Positions 1 through 24,951 of a DNA stretch of 64,000 nt are shown in pieces. Each line of letters begins with the position of its first letter. Within the stretch, counting starts at the first letter, position 1. The notes under the pieces were generated by a model. The model did not search any database, was not told the origin of the DNA, and worked only from the letters and a program-made list of their open reading frames with translations. The stretch comes from a virus (Duplodnaviria > Caudoviricetes), in the IMG/VR virus record IMGVR_UViG_3300032226_000683, positions 4,568 to 68,567 of that record; one strand, given 5' to 3'. The translations under genes and the position numbers were made by a program.

Positions 1-3000
1 TATTTGGTGTCCTTCAACATGGCTGCGGAACCGCGATATAACCTGATGGTGGATATTGCGGGGAGAAAATTTAAAACTTCGTTTGCCAAGCTTGATCCAG
101 TTTTTAAGAACTTAATAAACAGCCTTAATGGCCATGCCTTGGCAGAGATACTTGTCAGGCCATCGGCCAGCAACCCAAACCAGCCTTCAAAATTGTTTGT
201 ATATGTTGATTGCGCTGCGAATGTTTTTGCTTTTTCCGTCAAATTTTTAACGCTCTCTTCGTCTGGTCTACCCTGCTCGAGAATTTCTTCTACCCGTAAC
301 GATTGCTGTTCGGGCGTTAAATTAAATTCCTTAGCCTCCGAGGCGGCTTTGGCCTCCGCACGCTTTCTGGCTTCAGGACTTTGATTTAAAAGGCGGGCAA
401 CTTCTGTTTCAATCTCATCGTTTGTCTGGAGACCTTGCGCGATTGCAATGTTAGTAGCTTCCGCAATCTCGTACATTTTTCGGGAAGAAATTTTATTGAT
501 CGCGTCACCAGCCGCCATGGCTCGACCGAAGAAAATGAATGGGGCAAGAGCTCCATACTTACTGCTAAGATATTTAGAATCTAGCGGAATTCGGTACTCT
601 TCACCAAATACATTTACAGGAAGCTCGGGCTGAACAGCCCCCGGTTTACCCGCTCGGTAATCTTCCCCTTGTTTTACAATTGCTTCCCAGATATTAACTC
701 CACCCAGCTCTTGGGTCAAAGCATCTTGAATATTTGAATAATCCCCATTAAAGAATACATTTGCAGCCGCGTTTAATGCTGGCTTTTCCCCCACTAAAAT
801 AGATGAGTTAAGGGCTTTTGCAGCATCTATGTAGCCTTTAGCCCTTGCCTTGTCCCCGCGAACCCCTTTCATCGCACCAACTGCCGCAAGAAGTGCGGCG
901 TTGAGCTGATTGCTCATCGACGAAGACCAAGCATTGATACCGATCGTTCCGACTCCCGCCAGCAAGTTAGAGGTTTGATAGTTGACAAGCAACTCTCCCC
1001 ACACTTGGGGCGAGACCAGCTTTACATACTGATACATTTCAGAAATCTTTTTGTTTCGAATCATTCCGACCGGATAGAGGGGCAGGTCTTCAATTAACTT
1101 ATTGAGCTTCTTGCGTTCTTCCTCTCTCAACTCAGGCAACCCAAGTTGAGAATGCATCTGTGCGAAGACTTCGCTGTCGGTTAAAACTCCAAGGTTAGTC
1201 GCCTCGATTAATCTATCCAGAGCTGAACGCATCTTCCTGGTTTTACGTTCTTTCTTTGCTTCGAACCTTTTCTTAATTCTTTCGAGTTCTAGTTTACGCT
1301 CGTTGGAGATAAGCTCTGTTAATCCTTCTCGTAGGAAGTCGGTCACTTCTTTCTTCTGTGCTTCGTCAAGAGTTGTGTTCTGGGTGAGCAACGCGCCCAT
1401 TTTATTTTCAAAATCCATGATGTCACCCTTACTCGATCGTATGAGACCACGAACATTTGTTTGAGGTCCCCCGATTGATTCAAGGGATCGAACTGCCTGC
1501 TTCAAGCTCGAGACGGTAAAGGGGCGGCCAAAGGCTTCGTCGATGAAAGGCTCAAGTCCAGCGAGTTCTTCTTCGCTATAAACTTCTTTCAGGGAGTCAC
1601 GTACATTGTCAATAAACTCCATGACATCTGGGTACTTCTCAATTCTGTCACGAAGAACTTCGGCTTCGGTCGGCTTCGGCTCTGGGGTATAGGTAGGCTG
1701 AAGACCGCCCTGTTCTTTTGTTCTCTGCGCGATCAGCCTACGAATACGGGCAGCAAACTCCTCCAATTGATCCTTCTTCTTGGGTTCTTCCTGAAGGCGG
1801 GCCGCCTGCTTTTGCAAAGCTTCTGCTGAAGCCTCCGCCAAAGCTTCAAGTCTCGAAGTAGCTTCGGTGGGGATTGCGACGGGGGCTTGGTCTTTGGCTT
1901 TAGCCTTGGCGTCAATCACCCGACGAATTGCTTCACCGCGGGTTGCCGGGGGTTGAATGCCTTCACGGGCGCGGGCCTCACCAAGAGCTTGAGCTGAGAA
2001 AATTTCAAGAGCGTTAGTCAAAGCCGCGTCAAAATAAAGATCGAGTTTGCGTCGAACATTCTCTTGATTTTTTGCATCCCGCAGGGCTGGGGTGAGCATC
2101 AGCAAGCTTTTGATTTGATCCTCGGAAGCGGCTGTCACGCTAGGGTTTTCTGAACGTTGAATAATCTCAAGAATCATTCGGCTCAGTGCGCCAGTTTGTT
2201 CTGGGTTAAGTCGAATACCGTCAGCGTCACTTCCTTCAACCTCAGGGGCAGCGGCTAGATCTGCCCCAAGGAATGCCGATCCATCCGCCAGTGCCTGCTC
2301 ACTACCAACATATTCTGCTACTGCCGCTTCGAGTTCGGCAACAGTTGCTTGCTTCTTATTGAGCTCTACAAGTTTCGCAATCTTTTCAATGGTCGACTTT
2401 GTCTTTTTATCCGTCGTTAGTTTATCGACAGCTCTACGAGTTGAGTCAACAAGACCGGAGGATATCTCGCTCTCTTCTTCCGCAAAGCCTGTCAGCCTTC
2501 CTCGAATCGACGAATCAATTTGTCTGCTGATGTACATCTTCATGGCTTCTGGATTGTTGGAGAGTTCTCCTAACGCATTCCAGAGATCAACGGTACGCCC
2601 GGGTTCAGTGCCATACTTCCTGCTCAATAGGAGCATTACCTCTGCCAACTGTTCTCTGGCGTACAGGTCTGTCTTAGCTTTCGCGCCAAGAGCATTGGCT
2701 AACTCAAACCCAATCGCACCCTGCAACGGCAAAGAACTTTTGATGTTGCCGCTCAAGAAAGCATTAAGAGAATTCTGAACGCCGTTTGTTGCGATGTAAG
2801 ATTTAGCATCAGCAAATTGTTGTTCGCGTGGAATGGACTGATAGTACCAGGCATCTAGAAGCCTGTCCTTTATCTTGCCTTCGGGAAGAACGTCGACGAA
2901 CTGCGTGACGATATTCTTTATGGCTCGGCTCTCACGGATCTCGGGAGCTGGTATTGCCATTGGTGCACCAGCTCGAACCATTTTTACATTCGTTACTTGC

Positions 3001-6000
3001 CCGGAATCAGAGAGTTCGTAGGTAAATACAGGAAGAGCATTAGGTACGGCCGCCACGGCGTTGTTTATTGCTTCTTCTTGAGAAACACCCGGCGTGGCTT
3101 CATCGGAAGCCTTCGATAGTTCAACAGCCAAACGATTGATTACTTCTGCATTTGGTTTTGGCTGGGCTTTTGGGAGTGATAGAATTTGTTCGCCGCTCGG
3201 CAAATAATATTTTCCTTTAAACTCTTTGATTCGCATATCCCTAATCTGTCGTTCAATAGCCGCTGGGTTGCCTCGAATATCATCTCTAATCTGTGCGACT
3301 TTTATTCTATCGCCTAAATCAAGAGCGGTATACAGGTCCATCGCTATGCCCGAATCTTCTTTGGGTAGATTTGCAATGTCTTCCATTACGTCAGAGTACG
3401 AACGACGAGCTTCAGAACCTTCAAAATTTGCCACGTCTAGCATTGCAGCTATTGGCTGAGTAGCACTTCCTTCTGTCAATACTAAGTCGTTTTGATAGGA
3501 TTTTTTATCTAGAGGTAATTGATTCTTTGGGTAAACGAGAACGACTCCACCACCAAACGCTTGGCCATTAAAGTCTGGACTGAAATTTGTCTCTGGTCTA
3601 ATTCCGCCAAGTAAAGAAGTGATCTGGTCTAAGCTTGTTCCGTGATAGGCCAACTCATTATTTTTCTCTAGGTTCAAAAGATTAGATAATGAAACTTTTG
3701 TTTTCATTTCAGGGGCTGGCGCTGGAGCGATAACCTTGGAGAACTTGTTATATCCAGCATCGCGGAGAGCGGCAATCAAGGCGCCTGGGCTAGAATAGCG
3801 TTGGCCGTTGTAGTTAACTACTTCCTGGTTTTCAAACAATCGGATGACAGCATTAGCCGTAGCTTTTGCTTCCGAGGAAGCTGTGGTCGCAACAGCTATG
3901 TTGCCTGGAATCTTAACTCGATACTTCTGCTGAGTTGGTTGGACTTCAAAACTTTGTTCGTTGCTGGTTACTTCGGCCGGTGCAGAAGTTGCCACAAAAG
4001 CTGCGACGGGTAGTGATCTTCCAGCTTCTTCCATGTTCTCGGCCAGCTCAAGGGCTTTATTGGCGATCGCTGGGAGACTTGCCCGGCCTCCGTCCATCAC
4101 GGCTTGCGTTGCGGAACGGAAAAGATCTCGCTCGTCAGCTGTGATAATCCCGCGGCGCCGGCTAATATCCAGAGCGTCTAACCACTCCTCCACACCTACG
4201 GTCTTAAATAAATCATCGGCAACCGTTACCCCAAGCACGCCTTCAGTTCTACCTTCCAGATGATTCTCAATCATGCGGTAGATTCGAAGATCGTATGAGT
4301 CGAATACGGTCGCGGCACGGGGCGCAGTCGGTGAAGTTCCCGGAGCGGGGATGGGTCCGGCTGGAGCTTCTCCAGCTTGTACAAATTCTTTTGATGTTTT
4401 GCGAAGTGTGGAGATTGCGTCTTCGATGCTTTGACGCATCACTAAGCGATCCTTGGCATTCGGAGCCAACCCCAATCCACGCTTGACCACTGTAGCCATG
4501 CTGTCAAACCACACGCCAAGTCTGGCAAGAACAGATTTATTCTCCGACTTTAAAATATCCTTGAGACGTTGTGTTGCCCGGGCAATGTCGCTCGCATTTA
4601 CTGAGTTAACTTGTTCGGTGATGCCTCCAGTTAATTTTAGCTGGGATAGCTGGCGAATTCCTTCCATGGCAACAAAGAAGGAATCATTCGCAAGAGCTTT
4701 AATTTTTGCCTGTGTATCTGAATTTGTTATATCAGATCCCAGCGATGAGTAATATAATCTCCCAATAGCTAGTCTAGATGCTTGAGATAGTGAATCTCCG
4801 ATCGCCGTAAGTTCCTCTATAGGATCAAGGCCAAGCTCTCGGTAGTATCGTAAAGTCTCTATGTGGATAGTTTCTTCCAGCAATGCTTGGGTTATGTAGG
4901 ACTTATAAGCATCAGGAGATAGCTTGTTCTTTCCTTCTTCAAGCCGGGCGGGGTTGATTACTATAACGTCGGAATCATTATCTGATCCCACGACAACAGC
5001 CATTGGGTGTGTGAAGTTTGGATCAATCTTTACGTTATAGTTATGGGCTTGGCCCTTGGCATCTCGGAATGTGATTACATTATTGTTATAGTCTTTCCCA
5101 AGAGCTGATTTTAAAATCTCTTCTGTAGTAGAAACTTGTTCGGGAGTTGCTTCGACTGTTGACTTCACCGGAGCGACAACTTCAGCCTTCAGCCCTTCAA
5201 AGCCGGCGCCAGTAGTGGCATCTAGCAAGCGAAGTTTGGCACGCATCCGGTCGATGTTCTGTTGGTCGACTTCGGCTTTCGACTCCAAGAAAATAAGATT
5301 GGGTCGGCTGGCACTGTCAGTACGCCATACCCTATAGATGAGCTGAACGGCTTGGATCGCACTGACGGGTGGCGACATAATAATCATGTCGCGAGGCTTG
5401 TCGCCGAACTTATCGTCGAGCTCAATTCCGGTTCCGCCCATCTCCTTCGTGGCGATCAGAACATCAGCTGCGTTTTCATTGAAAGCCGCGAGTGCTTGTT
5501 CCTTAGTCTGGTCTGAACCAGTATACATCCTTGCAATTTTGAGATCTGGAGCAAGGCGGAGGATCGCTGCCTCTACCGCGGCTGAAGTTGGGTCAACCGT
5601 TTCCCCGCGGGCATTTGTTTCAGAAACAAATCCAACATAGATAACTGGCTTACGACCTTGGCGGATAGATTGGATGGCTCGTTTGGCCGCGGCATCAACT
5701 TTATACTCTTCCAACGCCCGCTTCTGCGCGGCTACTAGTTTGCGTAATGATGCGATATCGGTGTTCTGCGCACCACCATACATGTTTTTGATATCTTCCA
5801 GTTGCTTAATGATTGCAGAGTCCAACGGAACATCTTGGAACTCTACATTCACACCATCCAATTTGAGGGATCGGGAACGTAGGATTCCATTCTTTACGAG
5901 TCCATCGAGATACGCTTCGAGACGATCTTGCATCTCTGCTTCGGTAACTCCGGGCGATAATGTCCAGTAAGATTTCTTTCCACCCCGGAGGTATTGCTTC

Positions 6001-9000
6001 TCAAATCCAAGTCTTTTGATCAAGGCATCGGGAGACTCGGTGTCGAAGATACCAAGTCGTCCAAGCGAGAGAAGCTGATCGGGTGTCTCAAACGGAGTTC
6101 CAGAAGCCATCAGTACTCGACCGGCTTTCTGTGAAATCTCATTCATCAGGATCGACCAGGCACGGCTCTTACCTTCTTGGATTGCTTTATGCAGGTTTCG
6201 TCCGGAGTGCTGTTCGTCAAAAATAACAACTGTCTTTGCATCCACTAATGGAAGAATCTTTTCCAAGTACTGCGAGGTGTAAGTGGAGACGACAACTTTT
6301 CCTGGCACATTCTCAATCGGAAGACCGCGACCACTCTCACCCTTACCACCACGAGCCGCAATCGGAACGCCCATCAGTCCGGCATCTTTCTCAATCGAAC
6401 CGCCGATTGTGTTGAGATCCCAGTTCGGGGTAACGGCATCGGGAGCCGTCAAATAAAATACATTAAATCCTTTGTTGAGATAGTATTTGGCTGCCGCCAA
6501 CAACACTCGGGTCTTGCCAGTTCCAGGACCATTAGCCAAGTAAAAAGCTTTATGCTTGGAGCTTTCCATCGTGGTGATGGCCGCCGCCGCATCTTGCTTT
6601 TGCTCTGGAGATAAGAGGCTAGTGGTTTCCGATCCGATCGGATCTAGAACTTTCTCGCTGTAAGGTTTGCCTAGCTGGTTGCGGGATTCGACGAAGGACT
6701 TGGGGATGGGGACGCCACGAGCGCGTTCAGCTCCAGGTCTCCCGACTCCGGTTGCCCCACCTGCAACAGCTCGTCCCACTTCTTCCCGCTTAACGGGAAC
6801 GGTTTCTTGAGAAACTCGCTTTGTGGTGGCAGCACGTTTGGCTTCGATTTCCGCGAGTTTCTGGCGAGCTTCCTCACGTCGATCATCGGCTGTTTTGGCT
6901 TTTGGCTTGGGGGTTGGTTTAGTTGTTGGTTCTTCATATGTTCCTTCCTCGTTGGTGGTAATTCCGCTATCGGCCAGAATCTGGTCGTTGACCTTTAGCA
7001 GATTTGATCGGAAGGTGGCGGCAATATTGTTCTTTGCCGGTCCCTCTTCCATTGTTTGAGAAGCCAGATAAGGCTCCGCAAGTTTGTTTAATTTGTCGAC
7101 ATAGTCATCGGACTGAGCTTTTGAAATGTTTCCGTCATCGAGGGCAGTCTTAAGATTGCTGTCGACCGCTTCAGCCAGTTCAGTGATACCCTCAGGAGAA
7201 AGTTTAGACTCAACTACGGAATCCATATATCCTTCAAAAGCCCGAAGAATATTAACGGAGCGGGTACTTTGGGTTTGTTCGAGCAATGCTTTGGCGGAGG
7301 CAAGCTCTACGTCGTCAAAGAAATCATCGGCCTGTAGTTTTCGGAAGCGTTCGATTGCTGGCTGGATTTGTTTAGCAGTTAGACTTCCCTCTCGGACAAT
7401 TCCTTCTGGTTCCACGACCTCTCGAACTGGAAGAGTTCCAGCTTCCTGATTCTTGCGGTATTCAGCCTGTAACGCAGAAACAAACTTCTGCTGAACCGCC
7501 GGCTTCAATGCATTGATGTTGTCGACAGTAGTTCCAATCTTAGCGGCATCTTGGGCTGTAACTCCTTTACCGGAAGTCACGGAGTCAAACGCGAGTTTCT
7601 CGGCTTCAGTTCCTAGCGATTGCCTAAAAGGTGCTTGAAGATTCTGGGCAAGAATGGAAAGAGCTTCCTGCCTCTGGGCTGGCGAAGGAACGTCAGAAGG
7701 ATTGGCAACTTGGTTATCCACTTCTGTTGCATCAATCTGGTCGAGGGCTTCATTGATCGCTCCGGCGACGGCGGGATTGATTCCTTGTTCCTCGGCCAGC
7801 GTGTCAGCATCGACTGCATTAACACGAAGACCGGGAGTCTCAAGGCTAACGGCCGCGCCAAGACCAACTCCAGCGCGCATCCGAGGAACAGCCCTGCGGA
7901 TAAAGTCCCGAAGTCGGCTATTAAAAATTGTGCTTAAGGAGAGATTATTCTTGCCTTGTCTGAGTTCATATAAAAAGCTGTTGATGGTTGCGGCAGATAC
8001 TTCATCTGCAATATTATATTTTTGATATCCAGCTAGCGACTTGCTCTGCAAATAAGATCTCTTACGGTTTACGTAAGCCATAACGGTTTCTGCTGGGGTC
8101 ATTATGTTGCGACCGTTCTCGTCGATCGCACCAAGACTTTGGAGCAACTCGATTGTCGCGGGATTCTTTAAATTAAATACTGCGCCGAGAGCTTCCTTTG
8201 AATTCTCTCGAGGGTCTGGCTCTAGCTTTTGATACTTCTGGAAAGACTCGCTTTCGGGGTTGTTGATCGGAAGAACGATGTCGGGACGGGCTTCCAATTC
8301 GGGGGCCAGCTTTCCGGTTCTGGCTTCTTTCGTAGCTTCGTTTTCAAATTGCTGAACTAGTTTAGATACCGATTCTTCACCACGCACTAAACGAGCAGCC
8401 TGTCCCTCAACCTGCATTGCCTGAAGCCTTGCAAGCTGTTCCTGCATGGCGACGGCTTCATCTGCCGGAGCTTCCTTTATTTTATTTTCGAGAACATTGA
8501 TTTGATCTTGAAGTCTTTTCGCATTGATCTCTGCTGGTTTCTCTTGCTCAATCAGCTCTTGGCTTTTAGCCAGTTGGCTTTCCAAGGCGACTTCATAATC
8601 GGTTGGGCCGAGATATTTTCTAGCAACTTCTTCGATGGCATCGTCTGTTCCGGCTTTCTCCAACTCGGAATTCATTTGGTCAATCTCGTCGGTCTCAAGA
8701 CCAATCTCTTCCGCACGCAGAATAAACTGATCTTTTAACTCTTGCTTAAATTCAATCGCAGGAATCCCGTTCATCCAATTGCCAGCGTCAGTTTTTACAT
8801 TCGTTACAGAATAGGTTTTTCCGTCTTCGGACAATTCACCAATTACGCGACCCTGACTCTCAAGCCATTGAATCTTCGAAGCATTCTCTGGTGTATTAGA
8901 AAGGTTAATGGTCGTGGCACCTTTCTCAAAAACACCAATCAACTCATTGAGTGCTGAAAGCTTTTCCTCTTCGGTTTCAGGAGCTCTGGTTTCAATCGTT

Positions 9001-10703
9001 GCTGGAATACCAATCTGCCCCTCTGCTTTTGAAATCTCCTGTGTCAGCATGGATTCAACCGATCCTTGCTTCGCGGATTCTACTGCTTCGTCTGCTACCT
9101 TTGTTGTCTCGGGAGTGGTTACCGTATCAAGAGAAGAGCGAACATTGACAGCATCAAAAAGGGACTGGGCTTTTGGAGATGTCAAAGACTCTCGGAGTTG
9201 AGCCATTTGCTCCATCTTTTGTTGGTCATTAAGATTTGGATCAACTTTAATACTTGATACTGTTTGTTCTAAAGATTTTGCAAACCGATCATCTGCCAGT
9301 TTATATATTTTGGCTCGACGATTTGCGATAGACGCTGCCCCTATAACTCCAGGGATTGCCATTCCAAGTCCGATACCACCAGACACGGCCAAGTTTTGGA
9401 GCAAAGGTTCTACGGGATCTTGCCCCCGCAGAACGGCTTCGATTTCTTCAGATGCAGTTTCTCCGAGAGTAGTTCCCACCACTCTGCCCGTGCTACCAAC
9501 CAAAGGGGCCAAAGCAGGAATTTTTGTGGCCAAGGCTTTTGCAGCTGCATGATTGGCTAGGGCATTATCAATCGAGTTTTCTAATTTGTTTCCAGCTCCT
9601 TCGGCTAAACCCAGAACGGCACTCTCGCTGAATATGGATGACAAACGCTGGGGTACGGTTAGATTCCGCGGGTCGCCCTCGAAAGATTGCGATGCCCCGA
9701 TAGTCGCATACGTTGCACCTCTGGAAAGAACGGTTGGAACTTTGATAGCTTGATCTGCAATCTGGCCAGCTTTACCCAATAGCTTTGTGGCGCCGGCGCC
9801 AACTCCGATAAACGAACCCACGGATCCGAGGGCTGCCCCGGCAAGAGTCCCGGTCATGTAATCTTTTTGAATTGTATTGTTGATCGCGTTTGTAAGAGCG
9901 GCCCGACGGGCAACCTGCTCGGGATCGTTTTCGTCTACTATAATATCTCCGATAGATACGAATGGTAGGAAAGCATCACCAGATTGAATCGCAAAGTTTC
10001 GAAGACTAGCCGATCCTAATTTCTTTGATTTGTCACTTTCAAGATCGCGAAAATAATTCTCTGCCATCGGCAGATTCATTCCGAGCTTGGCAGTGAGTGG
10101 CCCCGTACCAAAAGCCATTGCAGGCTTCTCATCCTTAGAAACAATTGATTTTCCGCTGTTTAATTCATCTTCAAAAAAGGGGGCCAACTCCAAAGCTTTT
10201 GCCGCTTTGGCTGGGTCGGTGATTGTCCCAATATAATTTCTAGCCGCAAAGCTTTGTTGCGTTGCTTCCGCCTCTTCATTGGTAATCCCGAGCCCGCCTT
10301 GCAAGTAGGCTCCAATGGTTTTGCCAACACCGAGAAGCGAGAGTTTAGTCAGCTCGCCCCAATCACCTTTTTTCTCTGCGTCAAGAATCTTTTGGCTGGA
10401 CTCAAGCGAATAGTTACGGACGTTGTTCTGAACGTCTTCCCAAGCCTGGGTATTAAATGGAAGTTTCTTTTCCTTAAATCGCGTGGCCAGCCCACCTATA
10501 AGGTCGGTTGATTTCGGATCATCCCTAAGAGCAATTAAATTCTGAGCCTGCGCCAAGTTAGTGGGCGGAGCTGAAAATAGGGAGTTAATTTCCTCCTCAG
10601 GGGTAGTTCCGGAAGGAGCAAACAAAGCATCAATAGCTTGTTGCTCACCCTCGGGGAGACTAGCTAGATCAAGCTCTGTCTCGGGGTTAAATGGATCCGC
10701 CAT
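1..10703 (-). CDS. Giant (>3,500 aa, runs off the left edge) polyvalent virion/ejection protein with sigma-like, SF2 helicase (strawberry-notch type), zincin-like and ART-like segments
   Basis: ATG at 10703 (MADPFNPETELDLASL...). The segments I translated are open, and the track lists no stop-terminated minus ORF in this frame. Motifs: GPGTGKT 6530-6510, DEQH 6218-6207, EETIH 4877-4863, YHGT 3647-3636. Last gene of the structural module. Confidence 0.9.
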   Translation of the reverse strand, partial: MADPFNPETELDLASLPEGEQQAIDALFAPSGTTPEEEINSLFSAPPTNLAQAQNLIALRDDPKSTDLIGGLATRFKEKKLPFNTQAWEDVQNNVRNYSLESSQKILDAEKKGDWGELTKLSLLGVGKTIGAYLQGGLGITNEEAEATQQSFAARNYIGTITDPAKAAKALELAPFFEDELNSGKSIVSKDEKPAMAFGTGPLTAKLGMNLPMAENYFRDLESDKSKKLGSASLRNFAIQSGDAFLPFVSIGDIIVDENDPEQVARRAALTNAINNTIQKDYMTGTLAGAALGSVGSFIGVGAGATKLLGKAGQIADQAIKVPTVLSRGATYATIGASQSFEGDPRNLTVPQRLSSIFSESAVLGLAEGAGNKLENSIDNALANHAAAKALATKIPALAPLVGSTGRVVGTTLGETASEEIEAVLRGQDPVEPLLQNLAVSGGIGLGMAIPGVIGAASIANRRAKIYKLADDRFAKSLEQTVSSIKVDPNLNDQQKMEQMAQLRESLTSPKAQSLFDAVNVRSSLDTVTTPETTKVADEAVESAKQGSVESMLTQEISKAEGQIGIPATIETRAPETEEEKLSALNELIGVFEKGATTINLSNTPENASKIQWLESQGRVIGELSEDGKTYSVTNVKTDAGNWMNGIPAIEFKQELKDQFILRAEEIGLETDEIDQMNSELEKAGTDDAIEEVARKYLGPTDYEVALESQLAKSQELIEQEKPAEINAKRLQDQINVLENKIKEAPADEAVAMQEQLARLQAMQVEGQAARLVRGEESVSKLVQQFENEATKEARTGKLAPELEARPDIVLPINNPESESFQKYQKLEPDPRENSKEALGAVFNLKNPATIELLQSLGAIDENGRNIMTPAETVMAYVNRKRSYLQSKSLAGYQKYNIADEVSAATINSFLYELRQGKNNLSLSTIFNSRLRDFIRRAVPRMRAGVGLGAAVSLETPGLRVNAVDADTLAEEQGINPAVAGAINEALDQIDATEVDNQVANPSDVPSPAQRQEALSILAQNLQAPFRQSLGTEAEKLAFDSVTSGKGVTAQDAAKIGTTVDNINALKPAVQQKFVSALQAEYRKNQEAGTLPVREVVEPEGIVREGSLTAKQIQPAIERFRKLQADDFFDDVELASAKALLEQTQSTRSVNILRAFEGYMDSVVESKLSPEGITELAEAVDSNLKTALDDGNISKAQSDDYVDKLNKLAEPYLASQTMEEGPAKNNIAATFRSNLLKVNDQILADSGITTNEEGTYEEPTTKPTPKPKAKTADDRREEARQKLAEIEAKRAATTKRVSQETVPVKREEVGRAVAGGATGVGRPGAERARGVPIPKSFVESRNQLGKPYSEKVLDPIGSETTSLLSPEQKQDAAAAITTMESSKHKAFYLANGPGTGKTRVLLAAAKYYLNKGFNVFYLTAPDAVTPNWDLNTIGGSIEKDAGLMGVPIAARGGKGESGRGLPIENVPGKVVVSTYTSQYLEKILPLVDAKTVVIFDEQHSGRNLHKAIQEGKSRAWSILMNEISQKAGRVLMASGTPFETPDQLLSLGRLGIFDTESPDALIKRLGFEKQYLRGGKKSYWTLSPGVTEAEMQDRLEAYLDGLVKNGILRSRSLKLDGVNVEFQDVPLDSAIIKQLEDIKNMYGGAQNTDIASLRKLVAAQKRALEEYKVDAAAKRAIQSIRQGRKPVIYVGFVSETNARGETVDPTSAAVEAAILRLAPDLKIARMYTGSDQTKEQALAAFNENAADVLIATKEMGGTGIELDDKFGDKPRDMIIMSPPVSAIQAVQLIYRVWRTDSASRPNLIFLESKAEVDQQNIDRMRAKLRLLDATTGAGFEGLKAEVVAPVKSTVEATPEQVSTTEEILKSALGKDYNNNVITFRDAKGQAHNYNVKIDPNFTHPMAVVVGSDNDSDVIVINPARLEEGKNKLSPDAYKSYITQALLEETIHIETLRYYRELGLDPIEELTAIGDSLSQASRLAIGRLYYSSLGSDITNSDTQAKIKALANDSFFVAMEGIRQLSQLKLTGGITEQVNSVNASDIARATQRLKDILKSENKSVLARLGVWFDSMATVVKRGLGLAPNAKDRLVMRQSIEDAISTLRKTSKEFVQAGEAPAGPIPAPGTSPTAPRAATVFDSYDLRIYRMIENHLEGRTEGVLGVTVADDLFKTVGVEEWLDALDISRRRGIITADERDLFRSATQAVMDGGRASLPAIANKALELAENMEEAGRSLPVAAFVATSAPAEVTSNEQSFEVQPTQQKYRVKIPGNIAVATTASSEAKATANAVIRLFENQEVVNYNGQRYSSPGALIAALRDAGYNKFSKVIAPAPAPEMKTKVSLSNLLNLEKNNELAYHGTSLDQITSLLGGIRPETNFSPDFNGQAFGGGVVLVYPKNQLPLDKKSYQNDLVLTEGSATQPIAAMLDVANFEGSEARRSYSDVMEDIANLPKEDSGIAMDLYTALDLGDRIKVAQIRDDIRGNPAAIERQIRDMRIKEFKGKYYLPSGEQILSLPKAQPKPNAEVINRLAVELSKASDEATPGVSQEEAINNAVAAVPNALPVFTYELSDSGQVTNVKMVRAGAPMAIPAPEIRESRAIKNIVTQFVDVLPEGKIKDRLLDAWYYQSIPREQQFADAKSYIATNGVQNSLNAFLSGNIKSSLPLQGAIGFELANALGAKAKTDLYAREQLAEVMLLLSRKYGTEPGRTVDLWNALGELSNNPEAMKMYISRQIDSSIRGRLTGFAEEESEISSGLVDSTRRAVDKLTTDKKTKSTIEKIAKLVELNKKQATVAELEAAVAEYVGSEQALADGSAFLGADLAAAPEVEGSDADGIRLNPEQTGALSRMILEIIQRSENPSVTAASEDQIKSLLMLTPALRDAKNQENVRRKLDLYFDAALTNALEIFSAQALGEARAREGIQPPATRGEAIRRVIDAKAKAKDQAPVAIPTEATSRLEALAEASAEALQKQAARLQEEPKKKDQLEEFAARIRRLIAQRTKEQGGLQPTYTPEPKPTEAEVLRDRIEKYPDVMEFIDNVRDSLKEVYSEEELAGLEPFIDEAFGRPFTVSSLKQAVRSLESIGGPQTNVRGLIRSSKGDIMDFENKMGALLTQNTTLDEAQKKEVTDFLREGLTELISNERKLELERIKKRFEAKKERKTRKMRSALDRLIEATNLGVLTDSEVFAQMHSQLGLPELREEERKKLNKLIEDLPLYPVGMIRNKKISEMYQYVKLVSPQVWGELLVNYQTSNLLAGVGTIGINAWSSSMSNQLNAALLAAVGAMKGVRGDKARAKGYIDAAKALNSSILVGEKPALNAAANVFFNGDYSNIQDALTQELGGVNIWEAIVKQGEDYRAGKPGAVQPELPVNVFGEEYRIPLDSKYLSSKYGALAPFIFFGRAMAAGDAINKISSRKMYEIAEATNIAIAQGLQTNDEIETEVARLLNQSPEARKRAEAKAASEAKEFNLTPEQQSLRVEEILEQGRPDEESVKNLTEKAKTFAAQSTYTNNFEGWFGLLADGLTSISAKAWPLRLFIKFLKTGSSLANEVLNFLPAISTIRLYRGSAAMLKDTK

Positions 10704-10742
10704 GGCTGCTATAATTCAAGGGATTATTCAGCCGTTCGTCAA
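10704..10742 (-). promoter_or_regulatory. Putative sigma70-like promoter for the giant gene
   Basis: TTGACG (overlaps the TGA stop of the upstream gene)-17 nt-TTGAAT, 10 nt before the ATG; the -10 match is weak. Confidence 0.4.
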
Positions 10743-12295
10743 CGATTTTGTCCTGAGTCTTCAACTGCTCCCGGGGATACCACGCTGGAGGGAAGATCGA
10801 CCCCAGGGATGGTGTACCCCCGGGCTTTTAGGGTTGCCAAAATCTCTCGGGCTGGTCTGCCGTAGATAACGGCATTCGGGTCTCGGCGATATGCTTCGGC
10901 TATCGTGGCTAGAGTGGAGTCAGAGATTTGAATAGGTTTATTTTTTGACGCTACTGGTATAGTGGTAGTTCCTGGACGAGCCCCTTCAAACGAGCTTTTA
11001 GTTCGGAATGGGAGCGCTGCTGCTTGAGTTGTTTCTTTTTTAGCTTTATCTGTGGGGGCTGCAGCGGGAGCTCCGGCCTGAAGTTGTTGCGTCTGGAACT
11101 GTCGAATCAATGGAACTTGGCCGTATAGGAAGTTTGGAGAAGTTACTTCATCTTCCCACTTTTTGATTCTGTCTTGGGCTGCTTTTGTAAGCAGACCCGT
11201 ATCTGGATCGATAGTTGCGTTATAACCTTCTCTCGGAGTTAAATCTGGACTTTCGTAAGTAAAAGTTCTGTAGGATTCTCCAGTTTGAGGATCGGTTTTA
11301 GTAATGGATAATCCGGGATTTTGAGTTATAAGGTTCTCAGAAATCCCGGCAAATCTGCGATCTATTGCCTCAAGTTCGGCAATTGAGTTGGCTTTATTGC
11401 GTTTAAAAGCCAAACCCTGCACAGCTTTTGTCGTATACTTTGTTGGATTGTTTTTTAAATCATCATACTGTTTTTGATACTCGGGCTCAAGTCTTCCTTG
11501 TTCCGCAAGGTCTTCGAAAGAATCCATCATTTGCCCAATTTCTGACTGCCTATATTTTTCGAGCTTACCCAGTGCATCCATTCTGATTTTAGAAAAAGGT
11601 TCGTTGACTCTTGGGTCGGTGTTATTCAAAGCTCTAAATTCGTTGTCTACTTTATCCACTTCTGCAACATATTGATCGGGAGTATAGTCCCTTGGGTTAA
11701 GTAGATTCAACCGATCGCCCAATGCTCTGGCTGGTGTGGCTGTTTTTAAATTTTGTTCAGCTTGCGCAAGTTCACGGTTCTTTTGAATTCCTCCGTAGAC
11801 ATTATCATAAATTGCTGTGCGTTGAAGACGATCAATATTGGCATTAGAAATATCTTCCATCGCGGCAGATATTTTGGCGGGATCACCTGAAAGTTGGGCT
11901 ATCCTAAACTTTTGCTCTAGAGCTCCAGCTGTTTTATCTTTTTCTTCTAGGATTCTTTTTTCCTCGAGCTTGTCTAACTCTTTCTGCTGATCTAATTGAA
12001 ACTTTCCATAAGCCAGCTCGTTCTCAAAACTTTTTTGACCCAATCCAGAACGATATTGTTCCAACTGACGTTCATTATCAATGCTTGCTGCTTGAATTCT
12101 TTGGGATTCAAGTTGAGCTTGCCGTGCGGAGTTTTCGCGTTGAGCTGCAAGTTGGGCATAACCCAAACCAAGCTGCGCCTTAGCCTGTTCGTCCTGCTGG
12201 AAAAGCTGCTGCTTTTTTAAGTAATTGTCGCGAAGATCACCGATAATCCCTCGGACTTGACTTATGTAATCGGGGGCGTTGGGGGAGAGGGCCAT
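10739..12295 (-). CDS. Putative internal virion/ejection protein (Q/E/K-rich, helical)
   Basis: 518 aa, coiled-coil-like; lies between the tail genes and the giant protein, where podovirus ejection proteins usually sit. Confidence 0.6.
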   Translation of the reverse strand: MALSPNAPDYISQVRGIIGDLRDNYLKKQQLFQQDEQAKAQLGLGYAQLAAQRENSARQAQLESQRIQAASIDNERQLEQYRSGLGQKSFENELAYGKFQLDQQKELDKLEEKRILEEKDKTAGALEQKFRIAQLSGDPAKISAAMEDISNANIDRLQRTAIYDNVYGGIQKNRELAQAEQNLKTATPARALGDRLNLLNPRDYTPDQYVAEVDKVDNEFRALNNTDPRVNEPFSKIRMDALGKLEKYRQSEIGQMMDSFEDLAEQGRLEPEYQKQYDDLKNNPTKYTTKAVQGLAFKRNKANSIAELEAIDRRFAGISENLITQNPGLSITKTDPQTGESYRTFTYESPDLTPREGYNATIDPDTGLLTKAAQDRIKKWEDEVTSPNFLYGQVPLIRQFQTQQLQAGAPAAAPTDKAKKETTQAAALPFRTKSSFEGARPGTTTIPVASKNKPIQISDSTLATIAEAYRRDPNAVIYGRPAREILATLKARGYTIPGVDLPSSVVSPGAVEDSGQNR

Positions 12296-16968: not shown

Positions 16969-18900
16969 TCAACACTCTCCCAAATCGCTTACGTCTTTTC
17001 TGGATGCGTGAAGGCGAAACACAGATAATTTTGCGTGCCCGGTCCAGGAAATTTTTGGCTGGAATAGATATCCAAAACGGGCTTTTCGACCAATACCCGT
17101 CACACAAGAATCGGAAGGTTTTACTGTTCTTACATTATAATACCCGAGAGCCAATTCGGAAGGAGCACACCCCTCAAAAGATTGTGTCTCAGTTTGGAAA
17201 GAGATTTGCCCAGATTGGACTGGGAAAAATGTTGGGTAATAATCCGGGGAGAATTCAAAAGTCCAGCTTACATCTCCGTAAATTTCTGAAAAGGCTAAAT
17301 CTGCTCGGACTAACTCTTTGATTTCAAAAGGAGTCTCAAAGGGTAGTCTTCTTAATTCAACGTAGGATTGAATTGGCAGAGATATTGTGGACTCTCCATT
17401 TGGGATGGTATCGGAATAATCGTCATAAGTAATTTCATATAAAGCATTATTCCCGTCAGATCCACAAACAAGGGCAAAGCATCTTTTGACTCCGTCAAAA
17501 ACACCAACTGCCATCTTGCATACCTGAAGTCCCGTCCACTCCCCGTCATAAGATGGTGGATAATTCCCTTGATAGGATCCTGGATTAAAATCCTGGCTAA
17601 CTAACTTTGTAAAAACAGTATTAAAAGAAGTTAAACTTCCGTTAATTTTTTGAATTTTAGGGGCACACCCATAGAGAGCTCGATAGTCAAAATAAGTTGC
17701 TGGAGAATATTTTACCCACCGTTCAGTGTCAAAATTAATGACTCGATCTGCCTCTACGCTGTCTACTAAAGTAACATTCGCCACCTTTGTTTCTTGCATA
17801 GTTTGCAGGAAAGATCGAATTCCGTCTAAAGAGCGAAAATAAACATCGTTGTTTGTAACAACCATAGAATCTGGACTCTCTGCTCCACCATTTAAAAATA
17901 TTCTTCTTTGCATCCCGGGGGTGCTTTGCCATTGAGCTCTATCAAAAACATTAGATCGAACTGCGTTGACTTGTTCTCGTGTAAATACAATTAGATCCCC
18001 CTGGCCGGTTGATGTGTCAGATCCTGGTAGGAATGAAAGTCCAGTAATTTCGGAATCAAAAGAGAAGCTCCCTCCACCAGTAAGATATTGAGTTTCAGAG
18101 AATCTGATTTCAGCCCCGGAATAACTTCCGGTTAAATCCCCAGCGAACAATTGATTTCCGTTGGCAACCCAAAGTCTTCCGTTACCAAACGCCATAATCG
18201 GTCCGATTGGGATAGACACATTTAACTGCAAGGGGCCGGGTGGAAAGAATTTTGCGGTTGCTATAGCTGTTAGTGTACAGTTATTGCTGAGTGTTACTTG
18301 AGAACTAGAGTCAACCGAAACAATTACTGTGCCAGGTGTGATTCCTCTTGATGCTTGTACTAGCATTCCTGGAAACAATCCTGCCGTGGAGGACACGTTA
18401 ACTCGTGGATTATTTGCTCCAATAGCAGTTTGTAACTCTATAAAAGATTCTAGTTCTTGTAAAATATTCCTTGATCGGAATGAACTTGCCCCGCTGTACA
18501 CTATAGGGGAACTCACACCATCCTGAATAACAAGAAAATTATTGGCGACGGCAAAAGAGGCTCTTCTTGATATATAATTATTTACTTCTCCGGCTGGTGT
18601 AATATCAAGAGCTGCTCCCGATGGGTCTGTCGGACGAAGACTATATAGTCGCCCGTCAATTAAAGACACTAATTCCTCAACTGAATTATTCTGGTAATAA
18701 GATGCTCCTTGAATGACTCCATTTGGTATTGCTTTTATGAATTTAAAGCCGGGGCGGGATTTAGGGTACCCGCCACGCACAACTATATTTTCAGCCCATG
18801 AATATTGCGTAGCTGATAGTAAAGCTGCGTCTACACTAGAGTTCGCTCCTCCGATGAAAGAGACGACTCCCTCCACCAGACGGTTTTGATCTTTGATCAT
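16969..18900 (-). CDS. Tail nozzle / stabilization protein (P22 gp10 or T7 gp12-like)
   Basis: 643 aa, beta-rich; N-terminal ENIVVRGGYPKSRPG motif, GRLWVA, and position in the tail cluster. Confidence 0.65.
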   Translation of the reverse strand: MIKDQNRLVEGVVSFIGGANSSVDAALLSATQYSWAENIVVRGGYPKSRPGFKFIKAIPNGVIQGASYYQNNSVEELVSLIDGRLYSLRPTDPSGAALDITPAGEVNNYISRRASFAVANNFLVIQDGVSSPIVYSGASSFRSRNILQELESFIELQTAIGANNPRVNVSSTAGLFPGMLVQASRGITPGTVIVSVDSSSQVTLSNNCTLTAIATAKFFPPGPLQLNVSIPIGPIMAFGNGRLWVANGNQLFAGDLTGSYSGAEIRFSETQYLTGGGSFSFDSEITGLSFLPGSDTSTGQGDLIVFTREQVNAVRSNVFDRAQWQSTPGMQRRIFLNGGAESPDSMVVTNNDVYFRSLDGIRSFLQTMQETKVANVTLVDSVEADRVINFDTERWVKYSPATYFDYRALYGCAPKIQKINGSLTSFNTVFTKLVSQDFNPGSYQGNYPPSYDGEWTGLQVCKMAVGVFDGVKRCFALVCGSDGNNALYEITYDDYSDTIPNGESTISLPIQSYVELRRLPFETPFEIKELVRADLAFSEIYGDVSWTFEFSPDYYPTFFPVQSGQISFQTETQSFEGCAPSELALGYYNVRTVKPSDSCVTGIGRKARFGYLFQPKISWTGHAKLSVFRLHASRKDVSDLGEC

Positions 18901-21017
18901 GACGCCGCGGCGCGTGTTACTAGGATATTAAAAGGAAGATCTGTTTGGGCGGTTGTCGCGCCAGCACTATTATTAGCCAAAAGAATAGTTACTTCATCAG
19001 CTGCGGACACATATCCTGATACAGTTACGATGTTTTTAAAATCGGTTACTGGTAGTGAACCGCCATACGTTACTTGAACAAAATCTCCTAAAGCTGCTCC
19101 GCTTACAGTAATTACAGACGAAGCATCAGTAGCTCCGGCCGAGATACTTGCGATGGATGCAATTGTGGTGGAAGCAAAATAAAAACCAGTAAGTTTTGCA
19201 GCACCGCTTCCAGTACTAATTCTATAATCGGTAGCTTTTACAGAACCACTTACATCTAGGGCAACTGTTGGAGAGGCTATATTGATGCCAACCCTATGAT
19301 TGCTTGCGTTGACTACAAAGTCATCTGTGTTGACAGAAAGGTTCGAACTGATTTTAGTCTCACCAACTACATCTAGGGCAACTGTTGGAGAGGCTATATT
19401 GATGCCGACGAAACTATTGTATGCATCAACCACAAAATCATCTGTGTTGACAACAAGATTTTCAGATATTCTAGTCTCTCCGACTACATCTAGCGCAGCT
19501 GCTGGGTTAGCGTTATTGATGCCAACCCGTCCGCTGGAGGAATTTACTTTGAGCGCACTGGAACCAATGGTTGTATTCCCGCTAATATTAGTAGCCCCAG
19601 ATACATCTAGGGCAACTGTTGGGGAAGCTACATTGATGCCAACACGATGGTTAGTTGTATTAACCACAAAGTCGTATCCAAATTCAGTGGCTGCAATCTT
19701 AGTATCTCCGAATACATCTAGAGCGTAATCCGGGGAGCTATTATTAATACCGACTCGATTACTGCTTACATTTACTGCAACTACATCGCCACCAATAGTT
19801 GTATTTCCAGTAAGAGTCGTCGCTCCATTAACTGCTAAAGTGCTAGTCAACGAAACTGCCCCGGTTACGCTTAGGGTGGTAGATAGACTTGTTGCCCCTC
19901 CAACCGTCAAAGTGCTGCTCAACGAAGTTGCTCCGCCTACGCTTAAAGTACTAGACAGGGCTGTTGCTCCGGTTACGTTTAGAGCGCCAGCTAGTGAAAC
20001 AACTCCAGTTACACCCAAAGCTCCGCCTACAGTTGTGGCCCCACTAATTGCTGCTGTTCCAGTTACATCCAATGAGGCTGTTGGGTTAGTATTAAAAATT
20101 CCAACTGCGTTAACTATTGAAGGAGTAGTTAGAGATTTTACATAAATAGGAACAGTTGAATTTGTTCCGTTAACACGGAAAGTTGCTGCGGAGGGGGAGG
20201 CAACTCCGCCAGGATTGACTACAAAAGAAATAGCTTGAGCGGATCCGGCTACATCTAAAAGTCTAGTTGGAGTATAAGTTCCAATTCCAACTCTACTTTC
20301 GCTTACGTCGACAAAAAATGTTTCTGCTGTAACTTGACCTTTTACAGAAAAATCACTTGCAGCAAGTTGGGAAGTATTGAAAGTAGCTGGGCCAATGAAA
20401 GAAGAAGAACCGGGCGCGGCGTCAATCCCGACTTTAAAGGTTCCGTCTACGTGTAGAGTTGTTTCTGGTTGATCGGTTGAAATGCCGACTCTCCCATTTG
20501 TCCCTCCGTTAGCATCGCAAAATAATAGATGTGTGTCGTTGTCGCCCTCAACTCTAAAGTTGGAATTATTCCCACTCTCATTAATTACAACTGGTCCATC
20601 TAAGTTAGAAAGCCCACCCTCGCTTACTGCCAAATCATCAAAAATCCCGTTTGTCAAAGACACCGCGGATGAGGGAGAGACTTTTAAACCTACTGGAATA
20701 GAATCTCCTTGGTTGATTCCATCGAAATTCAACAACTCAGCAGTTACTTGACTGTAAGGAGAATTAGGATCAAGGACTGTTACTCGATAAAATCCTGCTT
20801 CTTCTATGTAGATTGTTTGACCTATAGCCATCCATCTATTTTCGGCTACGTAAAAAGTAACTGTAGTGCCAATAGGTGGTTGATTTTGAGCTGGGGCTAT
20901 TACGGTGGTAAAGGCATTGATCCCGTTGGTACCATTCGTGCCGTTAATACCAGCAAGACCCTGAGGTCCTTGGGGCCCGGCTTCTCCAACAACAAGTGTA
21001 TTACAATCGCAGCTCAT
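18897..21017 (-). CDS. Tail fibre with short collagen segment and internal repeats
   Basis: GEAGPQGPQGLAGINGTNGTNG; RVGINxxxPxxALDVxG repeats; 12-aa GATxLSSTLxV repeats. Confidence 0.8.
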   Translation of the reverse strand: MSCDCNTLVVGEAGPQGPQGLAGINGTNGTNGINAFTTVIAPAQNQPPIGTTVTFYVAENRWMAIGQTIYIEEAGFYRVTVLDPNSPYSQVTAELLNFDGINQGDSIPVGLKVSPSSAVSLTNGIFDDLAVSEGGLSNLDGPVVINESGNNSNFRVEGDNDTHLLFCDANGGTNGRVGISTDQPETTLHVDGTFKVGIDAAPGSSSFIGPATFNTSQLAASDFSVKGQVTAETFFVDVSESRVGIGTYTPTRLLDVAGSAQAISFVVNPGGVASPSAATFRVNGTNSTVPIYVKSLTTPSIVNAVGIFNTNPTASLDVTGTAAISGATTVGGALGVTGVVSLAGALNVTGATALSSTLSVGGATSLSSTLTVGGATSLSTTLSVTGAVSLTSTLAVNGATTLTGNTTIGGDVVAVNVSSNRVGINNSSPDYALDVFGDTKIAATEFGYDFVVNTTNHRVGINVASPTVALDVSGATNISGNTTIGSSALKVNSSSGRVGINNANPAAALDVVGETRISENLVVNTDDFVVDAYNSFVGINIASPTVALDVVGETKISSNLSVNTDDFVVNASNHRVGINIASPTVALDVSGSVKATDYRISTGSGAAKLTGFYFASTTIASIASISAGATDASSVITVSGAALGDFVQVTYGGSLPVTDFKNIVTVSGYVSAADEVTILLANNSAGATTAQTDLPFNILVTRAAAS
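19251..19760 (-). repeat. 117-bp (39-aa) tandem coding repeats in the tail fibre
   Basis: TACATCTAG anchors at 19251, 19368, 19485, 19602 and 19713; the first two copies share about 39 identical bp. Confidence 0.9.
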
Positions 21018-21028: not shown

Positions 21029-22915
21029 TTATACGTAACGCACTCCTGTGTTTATAAACGGAACGGCAGAATAAGTAAAGGTCTCGTGAGTTGTTTGATT
21101 ATAGGCAGTAGCCGTAGTGTAGGTAGGGATAAGGGCTGCTGCGCTAAGATCAGTTTTACCGAAAATTGATGAGTATATTCCGGCCGATCCCGGATTAATA
21201 GCCTCTAACGAAGCCCCGGCAAAGCTTGCTGCTGGGGTAAAAGACATATAATAAAAACCCACATTTAAAGTTGTGTTTGCAACACTTAGGGTAATTAAAG
21301 TGCTTGCGGCAGTTCCGGAATTCACAATTCCACCGACTACAAATGTTCCTGGAAGTCCTGTGGAGGCAACATTCCAAATCGCAATATGTACCGATATATT
21401 TGCGCTGGGAGGAGTAGACGATGTTTTAAATAAAAGCTCATCGATTTGCCCAGAAACTGGAATGTAAAGCAGGCCAAACCGTCTTCCGTTAATTGTTGGT
21501 GTAGTAGTCGACCCGGCCCCTCCCACTGAATAAACCCCAAGAATATTCGGAGTTTGAAATTTCGGAAGAATAGGCATTACCTCACTAGCTATGGCTACTG
21601 TGCCGGAAGTATCGGGAAGAGTAATAGTTCTAGCGGCGGTTGCCGATCCAGTTAGAGTGGTTCTAGTTGCGGAAACTCCGAGTTCAATTGAGCCGGTCCC
21701 ACGGGTATTAATAGACCCACCGCCATCATAAGTTGTTAAAGAACCACCAGGATTTGTTCCACCATAAGCAACAATGCTTCCACCTATTGATGGATAACTA
21801 GGGCCGGAAGTAGGTGCTATTGTCCCACCTCGTAAATCAATACTTCCGCCTGGGCAACTTCTTCCAGAAGTGTTAATACTTCCGCCAGCGGAACCTATAT
21901 AATCGTCAATACCAGGATTTACTGCGACTGATCCACTTCGGGTATCAATACTCCCACCGCTAGAAGCAACGCCTTTTGTCGTGATGCTTCCACCTGGTGA
22001 AGTGTCATATGTATTACCGCCGCGTGTATCAATTGACCCACCGGCAGATGAATACCCCTTTGTCACAATGGAGCCGCCATTACAGGCAAGTCGACCATCA
22101 ATATCACCGCCAGACGTGTCGACCCCTCCGCCAAAGTTTCCGGGCCCACCCGAGCCACCTCTTGTAACAATAGACCCACCAGCAGAAGAGCCTGATCCAG
22201 GTCCGCCTCTTCCTCCGCCTGTATTTATTGTCCCGCCGGGTGAGTCAGATGCTCCCCCGGATGTGTCAATTAACCCGCCACTTGCGTTAAGCTGGTCGCT
22301 TGCAGATGTGTTTATTGACCCACCTATGCCACCGAAGTCTCCTTTTGTATTAATATTTCCACCATTAGGTCCATAGCTAGAACCTCTTGTGTCTATGTAC
22401 CCACCTGCTCCATCGCTTCCGCTTGTATTAATATATCCACCATTAGAACCATTGTTAGTTGCCGATGTATCTATGTACCCACCTGATTGACCGCTTGCAT
22501 CCCCGCTTGTGTTAATATATCCAGCAGATCCAGCTGAATCAGTCATGGTTATAGTTCCACCATTTTCAAAAACGAGTGGGGACACTGGTGTAGTATCGGC
22601 TAGCTGGATATAAGACGCTTCCAAAATTTTCGAACCAGCCCCAGAATAAATCCATCTCTTTCCGTCTGTAGTTGCAACAATACTGCCCTCTCGAATCAAA
22701 GCCTGTTGTGCGGTAGTTAAATTGGCAATACCGCCTGAACTTACGATTACGTCATTTGTCTCTTCGAGAGCTGTAACGCGAGTGTCTAGAGCTGTAACGG
22801 AAGTGTCGATAGAATCAATTTCGGCCTGAATGGTGGCTGGAGGAGGAGTAGTATTTGCCCCGGCTGTTCCGCAATCGCAATCTCGGGCGTAGTTATCGGG
22901 ATTAGGAAAACTCAT
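21029..22915 (-). CDS. Second tail fibre / receptor-binding protein with glycine-rich GGxIxTxG repeats
   Basis: 628 aa; short coiled coil, many GGxIxT repeats, then a beta-rich C-terminal domain paralogous to 46157..46849. Confidence 0.75.
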   Translation of the reverse strand: MSFPNPDNYARDCDCGTAGANTTPPPATIQAEIDSIDTSVTALDTRVTALEETNDVIVSSGGIANLTTAQQALIREGSIVATTDGKRWIYSGAGSKILEASYIQLADTTPVSPLVFENGGTITMTDSAGSAGYINTSGDASGQSGGYIDTSATNNGSNGGYINTSGSDGAGGYIDTRGSSYGPNGGNINTKGDFGGIGGSINTSASDQLNASGGLIDTSGGASDSPGGTINTGGGRGGPGSGSSAGGSIVTRGGSGGPGNFGGGVDTSGGDIDGRLACNGGSIVTKGYSSAGGSIDTRGGNTYDTSPGGSITTKGVASSGGSIDTRSGSVAVNPGIDDYIGSAGGSINTSGRSCPGGSIDLRGGTIAPTSGPSYPSIGGSIVAYGGTNPGGSLTTYDGGGSINTRGTGSIELGVSATRTTLTGSATAARTITLPDTSGTVAIASEVMPILPKFQTPNILGVYSVGGAGSTTTPTINGRRFGLLYIPVSGQIDELLFKTSSTPPSANISVHIAIWNVASTGLPGTFVVGGIVNSGTAASTLITLSVANTTLNVGFYYMSFTPAASFAGASLEAINPGSAGIYSSIFGKTDLSAAALIPTYTTATAYNQTTHETFTYSAVPFINTGVRYV

Positions 22916-22950
22916 CGCAGTGATTATGCCTGTCTATAATTATGAGTCAA
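22916..22950 (-). promoter_or_regulatory. Sigma70-like promoter, probably leaderless mRNA
   Basis: TTGACT-16 nt-CATAAT, 7 nt before ATG 22915. Confidence 0.6.
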
Positions 22951-22957
22951 GCAATCC

Positions 22958-24916: not shown

Positions 24917-24951
24917 ATGGTTCTCCTATTGTGTGGTCTTATTTTTAATTG

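Follow-up and report, generated by a model that had tools for sequence, protein, structure and literature searches.

Within a giant protein of an uncultured phage of the Caudoviricetes, amino acids (aa) ~829–1089 are quite likely, on the strength of structure prediction, to adopt a sigma-like fold. The segment appears to form a two-domain module of the sigma-70 family, like the sigma factors of group 4 (extracytoplasmic function, ECF), in which a sigma-2-like bundle would be joined to a sigma-4-like helix-turn-helix (HTH) domain by a Gly-rich linker that bears an acidic insert. The sequence analysed, hereafter the window, is a stretch of 64,000 nucleotides comprising bases 4568–68567 of the 68,567-bp IMG/VR virus record IMGVR_UViG_3300032226_000683. 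The open reading frame (ORF) of the giant protein lies at window positions 3..10703 on the minus strand and runs past the left edge; 3567 aa are encoded inside the window, and the complete ORF of the full record has 3956 aa. The account that we favour, tentatively and with somewhat less than even confidence, is that a very divergent ECF-like sigma-2/linker/sigma-4 module is carried by an ejected giant protein of the polyvalent type and engages host core RNA polymerase (RNAP). The protein, whose gene comes last in the structural block, would travel in the virion, be ejected together with the DNA and, once in the cell, dock through its sigma-2-like domain on the β' clamp helices of host core RNAP. 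Host polymerase could thereby be captured at the entering genome, with the first transcription started or steered without new protein synthesis and the module acting as an injected sigma or a sigma-like recruiter. The SNF2-type motor next to the module may assist on the DNA.

The initial annotation had proposed, by eye, a sigma-70-like domain at 7460–8070 on the basis of three peptide segments. All three are present letter for letter and in the order given, N to C, on the minus strand over aa 898–1078: IADEVS...DFIRR (7893–8012, aa 898–937), VSLETP (7833–7850, aa 952–957) and FRQSLG...FVSAL (7470–7628, aa 1026–1078). The plus strand of 7460–8070 has no open frame and is full of stops. All parts of the module are accordingly given on the minus strand. 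The sigma-2-like domain (7869..8219, aa ~829–945) begins with a winged-helix-like N-terminal part with a β hairpin, followed by a helical bundle. It includes a region 2.2-like helix, IADEVSAATINSFLYELR (7959..8012, aa 898–915), the predicted point of contact with the β' clamp helices, and a basic, region 2.3/2.4-like helix, LSLSTIFNSRLRDFIRRAVPRMR (7869..7937, aa 923–945), with a net charge of +5. The Gly-rich flexible linker (7809..7868, aa 946–965) holds VSLETP and leads into an acidic helical insert (7683..7808, aa 966–1007; model helices 167–174 and 178–201) with a charge of −9, which is also the family median, and then into the sigma-4-like HTH domain (7437..7682, aa 1008–1089). At the front of the module, the motif ELLQSLGAIDENGR (8097–8264, minus strand, aa ~814–869) gave weak Pfam matches to the HA2 helicase winged helix in 13 of 23 homologues (best E 0.024, below the cut-off). 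In the model this stretch, with its small β hairpin, is a winged-helix-like add-on that starts the sigma-2-like domain.

The module is a conserved domain, kept in all 47 homologous giant proteins that we collected and in more distant giant proteins. Its best conserved stretch, over 23 sequences, is the basic helix at aa 923–945. In the numbering of a 326-aa piece that covers aa 800–1125 (add 799 to reach protein numbering), L124, S125, T126, F128, N129, S130, L132, F135, I136 and R137 are at least 90% conserved in these sequences, and A139 and R142 are invariant. In the sigma-4-like part the first two helices are conserved, with R1011, L1030, E1035, A1038 and D1040 invariant. A profile built from aa 800–1125 of the 23 sequences and searched against 1.84 billion representative proteins matched only 11, of which eight are giants of 3762–4629 aa, one has 2241 aa and two have 307 aa. 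The two short matches start or end mid-domain and are read as contig-edge fragments. Since the matches are giants or fragments only, no stand-alone gene of this module is known, ordinary sigma factors being beyond the reach of HMMER.

Support for the fold comes from structural comparison. An AlphaFold2 model of the 326-aa piece reached a predicted local distance difference test (pLDDT) value of 81.5 and a predicted template modelling (pTM) score of 0.47, the latter reflecting two bodies joined by a disordered linker (model residues 148–160). A Foldseek search of the PDB with this model returned, among its top 50 rows, 42 from entries titled as sigma factors or as RNAP initiation or holoenzyme complexes (E 0.07–1.1, probability at most 0.51), and the sigma alignments were colinear, near full length (216–356 columns) and spanned both halves. 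The matched chains were mostly chain F, taken as the sigma chain from entry titles and chain lengths. Against BFVD, the 50 rows comprised 17 named phage sigma factors, one 'RNA polymerase subunit', 15 unnamed, 12 uncharacterised and five other proteins, the top row having a probability of 0.69. VIA-align of the whole model with 48,161 chains returned sigma entries in 13 of 50 rows. Among these were 2h27_D, region 4 of E. coli sigmaE (rank 6, Z 5.0, root-mean-square deviation (rmsd) 3.3, 69/69 residues, model 214–284 on sigmaE 122–190), and 5fgm_A, region 4 of SigR (rank 17, Z 4.6, rmsd 2.5, 64/65 residues), both of which rank below unrelated helical proteins. The sigma-2 domain of SigR was aligned over 74/78 residues (Z 4.7), and 6dv9_F over model residues 37–286 and chain residues 9–177. 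Of these structures, 1h3l and 5fgm are Streptomyces coelicolor SigR, 2h27 is E. coli sigmaE, and 5zx2 and 6dv9 are Mycobacterium tuberculosis sigmaH and sigmaL.

The N-terminal domain was also folded alone from a deeper alignment of 21 sequences (pLDDT 89.4, pTM 0.82). VIA-align, a method independent of Foldseek, compared this model with the same 48,161 chains and placed sigma-2 domains at all of ranks 1–3, namely 1h3l_B (Z 5.0, rmsd 3.3, 74/78 residues), 5zx2_F (Z 4.8) and 9m84_F (Z 4.8), and 14 of 50 rows were sigma entries. In the ESM Atlas, the first named cluster for the whole region was 'Sigma-70 family' (0.95), and 17 of 30 hits belonged to the Sigma70_r2 set; most of these are of viral origin and about 200 aa long. 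The order of the parts, sigma-2 ahead of sigma-4 on one chain with a flexible linker between them, is seen in the colinear Foldseek alignments, in the 6dv9_F alignment and in the pLDDT below 50 of the linker at model residues 148–160. Each single sigma score is sub-threshold, and the results are jointly weak but concordant. Sigma factors make up a small fraction of each library, so chance does not readily explain why they come first repeatedly with four different methods and libraries.

The modelled contact with polymerase falls where a sigma factor would be expected to bind. The β' clamp helices are the main dock of sigma on core RNAP. A complex predicted between residues 225–345 of E. coli β' and residues 15–150 of the piece scored 0.67 (individual runs 0.67, 0.69 and 0.61), a verdict that supports binding; 58 of 80 solved complexes attained this mark, as did 2 of 110 mismatched pairs. 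The runs shared at least 83% of contacts and the partner had a pLDDT of at least 78. Among three controls, the best scored 0.41 and the other two 0.00. In the modelled interface, β' 271–298, the clamp-helix coiled coil, lies against the helix at aa 897–911 (residues 98, 101, 105, 108–109 and 112 of the piece) and two neighbouring helices. The segment at aa 898–915 that the initial annotation had singled out as region-2-like is thus the one predicted to contact the clamp helices.

The ECF (group 4) sigma factors, represented by SigR (1h3l/5fgm), sigmaE (2h27) and M. tuberculosis sigmaH/sigmaL (5zx2/6dv9), have the same sigma-2/linker/sigma-4 order and are the closest structures. The module shares with them its predicted docking on the β' clamp helices and a similar distribution of charge: the net charges of module and RpoE are +8 and +4 in the sigma-2 part, −1 and −7 in the linker, and +1 and 0 in the sigma-4 part, with −9 in the acidic insert, which RpoE lacks. 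The pattern of a basic sigma-2, an acidic linker and a near-neutral sigma-4 in the module mirrors that of RpoE. In contrast to the ECF sigmas, the module has no sequence similarity to sigma factors that a hidden Markov model (HMM) detects and a variable recognition helix, and it carries an additional winged-helix-like N-terminal part, an acidic insert of ~40 aa and its embedding in a 3956-aa protein. The nearest viral structures and language-model neighbours are free-standing phage sigmas (the Bacillus phage and cyanophage entries in BFVD and the viral Sigma70_r2 clusters of the ESM Atlas). Those are separate genes of about 190–300 aa, made after infection, whereas the module is internal to a giant protein that is probably virion-borne.

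A number of results weigh against a sigma factor, and the first of these come from sequence. No Sigma70 family of Pfam, NCBIfam or PHROGs matched the region at E≤10, none of the 23 family members matched a sigma family in Pfam, and PDB searches with whole-protein and region profiles gave no sigma at E≤10. The search of 1.84 billion proteins described above likewise returned no sigma. Alignment of the region profile with E. coli RpoE alone by hhalign gave no significant match, and local hhalign against RpoE orthologues and E. coli sigma paralogues gave probabilities of at most 1.1% (P 0.05–0.12). This negative is a weak one because the sigma profile was shallow: the alignments comprised 80 RpoE orthologues and six E. 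coli sigma-70-family paralogues (Neff 2.3–3.8), the RpoE sequence search having listed only orthologues of 86–100% identity and the genome scan sequences of 65–100%. A greedy hhalign path, itself non-significant, was colinear (region 73–285 on RpoE 24–191), pairing the helix at aa 898–915 with RpoE residues 44–60. It reproduces the register of the initial annotation, whose order of a sigma-2-like and then a sigma-4-like part agrees with both this path and the structural ranges. The sequence resemblance seen by eye is therefore not above chance, and what stands of the proposed sigma-70-like domain is the weak, concordant likeness of its predicted fold. As it fails at the level of HMMs, the module is not filed as a member of a Pfam sigma family; we describe it as a variant with a new architecture whose mode of action is probably that of an ECF sigma.

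The structural searches also have their contrary side. None of the Foldseek rows, in PDB, BFVD or the N-domain search, reached E≤0.001. The best VIA-align row for the whole model was an unrelated protein (NttA, Z 6.5), the sigma Z values of at most 5.0 are not clear of unrelated helical rows (4.7), and the program itself warns that Z below 8 can reflect a common arrangement. Certain sigma rows pair the C-terminal half of the module with sigma domain 2, which shows that helical matches are promiscuous. For the N-domain alone, Foldseek listed sigma in one of 40 rows, with weak DEAH-helicase rows on top, and the ESM Atlas gave no sigma and only scores below 0.9. These results bear on a different explanation, in which the segment is a generic helical and winged-helix/HTH nucleic-acid-binding accessory of the SNF2-type helicase, its likeness to sigma being a common arrangement with no link to RNAP. 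Every score is sub-threshold (E ≥ 0.02, Z ≤ 5.0), as such an accessory would have it, the DEAH-helicase rows fit the weak HA2 winged-helix matches in 13 of 23 members (E ≥ 0.024), and the comparison with sigma by hhalign was negative. We nevertheless consider a helicase accessory rather unlikely, as sigma was put first independently by four methods and libraries, the alignments are colinear and cover whole sigma domains, and the complex model picks the canonical β' surface.

The complex prediction is subject to reservations of its own. The control that scored 0.41 paired the module fragment with an unrelated protein in place of β', and E. coli β' is a stand-in for that of the host. The pass may reflect memory of solved sigma complexes. 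Invariant positions are not enriched among the modelled contacts (3 of 18, with 2.5 expected). In the sigma-4-like part, the putative recognition helix varies between relatives and has few basic residues, and no repeated promoter class was found by a motif search of the window, a genome-wide CGTATA listing or scans for sigma-70-type promoters. A variable, weakly basic −35 recognition helix and the missing promoter motif would suit a sigma-like fold that binds core RNAP without being an initiation factor, serving either as a decoy that blocks host sigma (shut-off) or as a tether that retains polymerase at the ejection complex and thereby lets transcription pull in the genome. The same structural and complex evidence speaks for such a decoy or tether as for the injected module that we favour. 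The region 2.3/2.4-like basic helix is, on the other hand, the most conserved part, which suggests contact with nucleic acid or polymerase beyond docking, and we regard the decoy or tether as unlikely. Also on the doubtful side, by our estimate, is the most specific form of the favoured account, that this phage lineage injects a sigma, with the module loading host core RNAP on the entering genome for early transcription without new protein synthesis. The adjacent SNF2 motor might in that case couple to the injected sigma, drawing DNA in.

The initial annotation had linked the module to a promoter class, AGGGGG-N15-CGTATA. This motif occurs at two sites in the window against 0.14 expected, and a looser form is present in one to two copies in each of five of five related records, with none for the reversed pattern. 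Its CGTATA half may resemble the −10 elements of ECF sigmas. The genome-wide CGTATA listing gave no further G-rich partners. In these relatives, the motif is unchanged (five relatives, one motif) where the putative recognition helix differs, so that the two do not covary. A conserved G-rich island at 49941–50020 on the plus strand, directly upstream of ORF 50039–50464, consists of runs of 5–6 G and GCGTATA followed by the hairpins GGGGTTGTCCC and CCCCC-ATAA-GGGGG; a partial second copy (51128–51154, plus strand) lies upstream of ORF 51193–51678. The island is found in five of five related records, one of its hairpins has a two-sided compensating change in two relatives, and it has no Rfam match. 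With only two copies, a setting in this island with its covarying hairpin and no covariation with the helix, the motif does not hold up as the promoter class of the module, and we read it as a conserved structured element that is not evidence for one. The proposal that the structural genes have TTGAC promoters was not supported either, as sigma-70-like matches in 22900–38700 number 22, with 22.0 expected from shuffles.

The only curated Pfam family on the whole giant protein is a superfamily 2 (SF2) helicase of the Strawberry-notch/SNF2 type (5211..6608, minus strand, aa 1366–1831), ~280 aa downstream of the sigma-like module, with ResIII above the cut-off (7.9e-06) and AAA_34 (2.8e-05) and Helicase_C_4 (5.6e-04) below it. 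Searches of the giant protein and its pieces with Pfam, PHROGs, NCBIfam and PADLOC yielded only helicase-type matches. A query of aa 840–1110 retrieved, from 4486 candidates, the 47 homologous giant proteins (3406–4629 aa) at 38–99% identity over that region, mostly on contigs of about 57–70 kb. Besides their length, these proteins vary in their cassettes, and two of them have HATPase_c. A weak match to poly(ADP-ribose) polymerase (PARP)/ADP-ribosyltransferase-like domains (PF00644, E 0.071, below the cut-off) lies at window 3537–3668 on the minus strand (aa ~2346–2389), around 'ELAYHGTS'. It falls in a cassette at aa ~2325–2585 that differs between homologues, some of which have HATPase_c instead, and a phmmer search of the PDB was empty. 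If real, the match would recall T4 Alt, a packaged ADP-ribosyltransferase that, according to PMC5512222, is delivered by the virion and retargets host RNA polymerase at once. T4 Alt modifies the polymerase enzymatically, whereas the module is proposed to dock as a sigma does.

A large multi-domain build with effector-type domains that vary between relatives is a feature of polyvalent, ejected giant proteins, and the present protein has it. Hydrophobic Gly-rich segments lie near both of its ends (aa 287–305, 438–456, 3582–3600 and 3686–3710), which is compatible with membrane insertion of an ejection protein. By analogy with the N4 virion RNA polymerase (vRNAP), P1 DarB and polyvalent proteins, and from the position of the gene, its size and the hydrophobic segments, the giant protein is most likely a virion component that is ejected together with the DNA. 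Polyvalent proteins including P1 DarB (Iyer et al. 2017, PMC5512222), as the main text of that paper describes them, are likewise giant and multi-domain, with a SNF2/Strawberry-notch-type ATPase and variable cassettes. They differ in that the word 'sigma' occurs 0 times in that main text, and in that no methylase, MuF or metallopeptidase domain was detected by Pfam in the giant protein. We found no description of a sigma-like module in polyvalent proteins in the main text of PMC5512222 or among the abstracts that a literature search covered. The vRNAP of N4-like phages (Schitoviridae), a giant of ~3500 aa, is thought to leave the virion along with the DNA and to initiate early transcription (PMC13434306, PMC11445570). 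The likeness lies in the giant protein, the proposed ejection with the DNA and the proposed role in early transcription. However, N4 vRNAP brings its own polymerase, whereas no RNA polymerase family appeared among Pfam matches of the whole protein and its pieces at E≤1, so that the giant protein is not of the N4 vRNAP type and would co-opt the host core.

No PHROG virion family matches the giant protein, and packaging is argued from gene position, size and hydrophobic segments; both points would suit an unpackaged protein, produced late alongside the structural genes, that does its work inside the cell after infection, as a factor for late transcription or DNA handling, for instance. Ejected giants like N4 vRNAP and P1 DarB (PMC5512222) typically resemble this protein in size, in their many domains and varying cassettes and in being encoded where the structural block ends, and an unpackaged protein seems to us highly improbable. 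A tape-measure protein was also considered, the hints being the helical character of the giant, its hydrophobic segments rich in Gly and two tape-measure proteins among the BFVD rows. It was judged less likely, as the gene follows tail-fibre-like genes and carries an SF2 helicase, and a tape-measure protein would still be virion-borne.

Were the ejected, RNAP-engaging module that we favour borne out, it would represent a novel route by which a phage seizes host transcription on entry and would add a domain type to the polyvalent repertoire. The phage sigma factors known to us are small and are synthesised once infection is under way, and the virion-borne transcription devices that we know of are complete polymerases (N4-like, crAss-like and jumbo phages). 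A sigma injected in this manner would be a third strategy beside early promoters for host sigma-70 and virion RNA polymerases. It also illustrates that sigma-like folds can escape HMM annotation in uncultured phages.

The minus-strand gene block opens with a terminase-like gene (31528–33267) and includes virion-structural-like and tail-fibre-like genes (16969–21017) ahead of the giant gene, which is its last large gene. The plus-strand half encodes a helicase, an exonuclease, a DNA polymerase, a DUF5906 primase/helicase-like protein, a dCMP deaminase, rIIA and rIIB. Pfam, gene annotation and six-frame searches with PF04542 and PF08281, the last of which returned nothing, identified neither a phage RNA polymerase nor a free-standing sigma in this genome; the host polymerase is therefore probably used. 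A megablast of window 5000–12000 against GenBank phages revealed no cultured relative, and tblastn against phages gave no match with the module or the helicase as queries. With the DNA polymerase it gave only matches below 60% identity, and hence neither a cultured relative nor a clue to the host. An Rfam search and a tRNA scan found nothing.

Some further features of the record were noted in passing. The rIIA-like (E 5e-88) and rIIB-like (E 4e-69) genes at 57641–60859 on the plus strand are clear in a phage that is otherwise poorly annotated. The record's 123-bp 'direct terminal repeat' probably represents an overlap from circular assembly. The G-rich sites lie at 54.5–55.7 kb in this record and at 1.6–2.8 kb in a 99%-identical relative record, and this shift indicates that the two contigs are differently permuted. 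Four to five tandem repeats of 117 nt are present at 19238–19757 in the tail-fibre-like minus-strand ORF 18897–21017. A 30-mer rich in C (ACCCCCACCC...), complementary to the G-rich runs, occurs in three copies at 45902–46070, near the start of the minus-strand ORF 45649–46014 and in the gap before ORF 46157–46849. Finally, a GC-rich, terminator-like hairpin (GGGGAGGGGGG ... CCCCCCTCC) is found at ~50470–50504, between ORF 50039–50464 and ORF 50540–51196.

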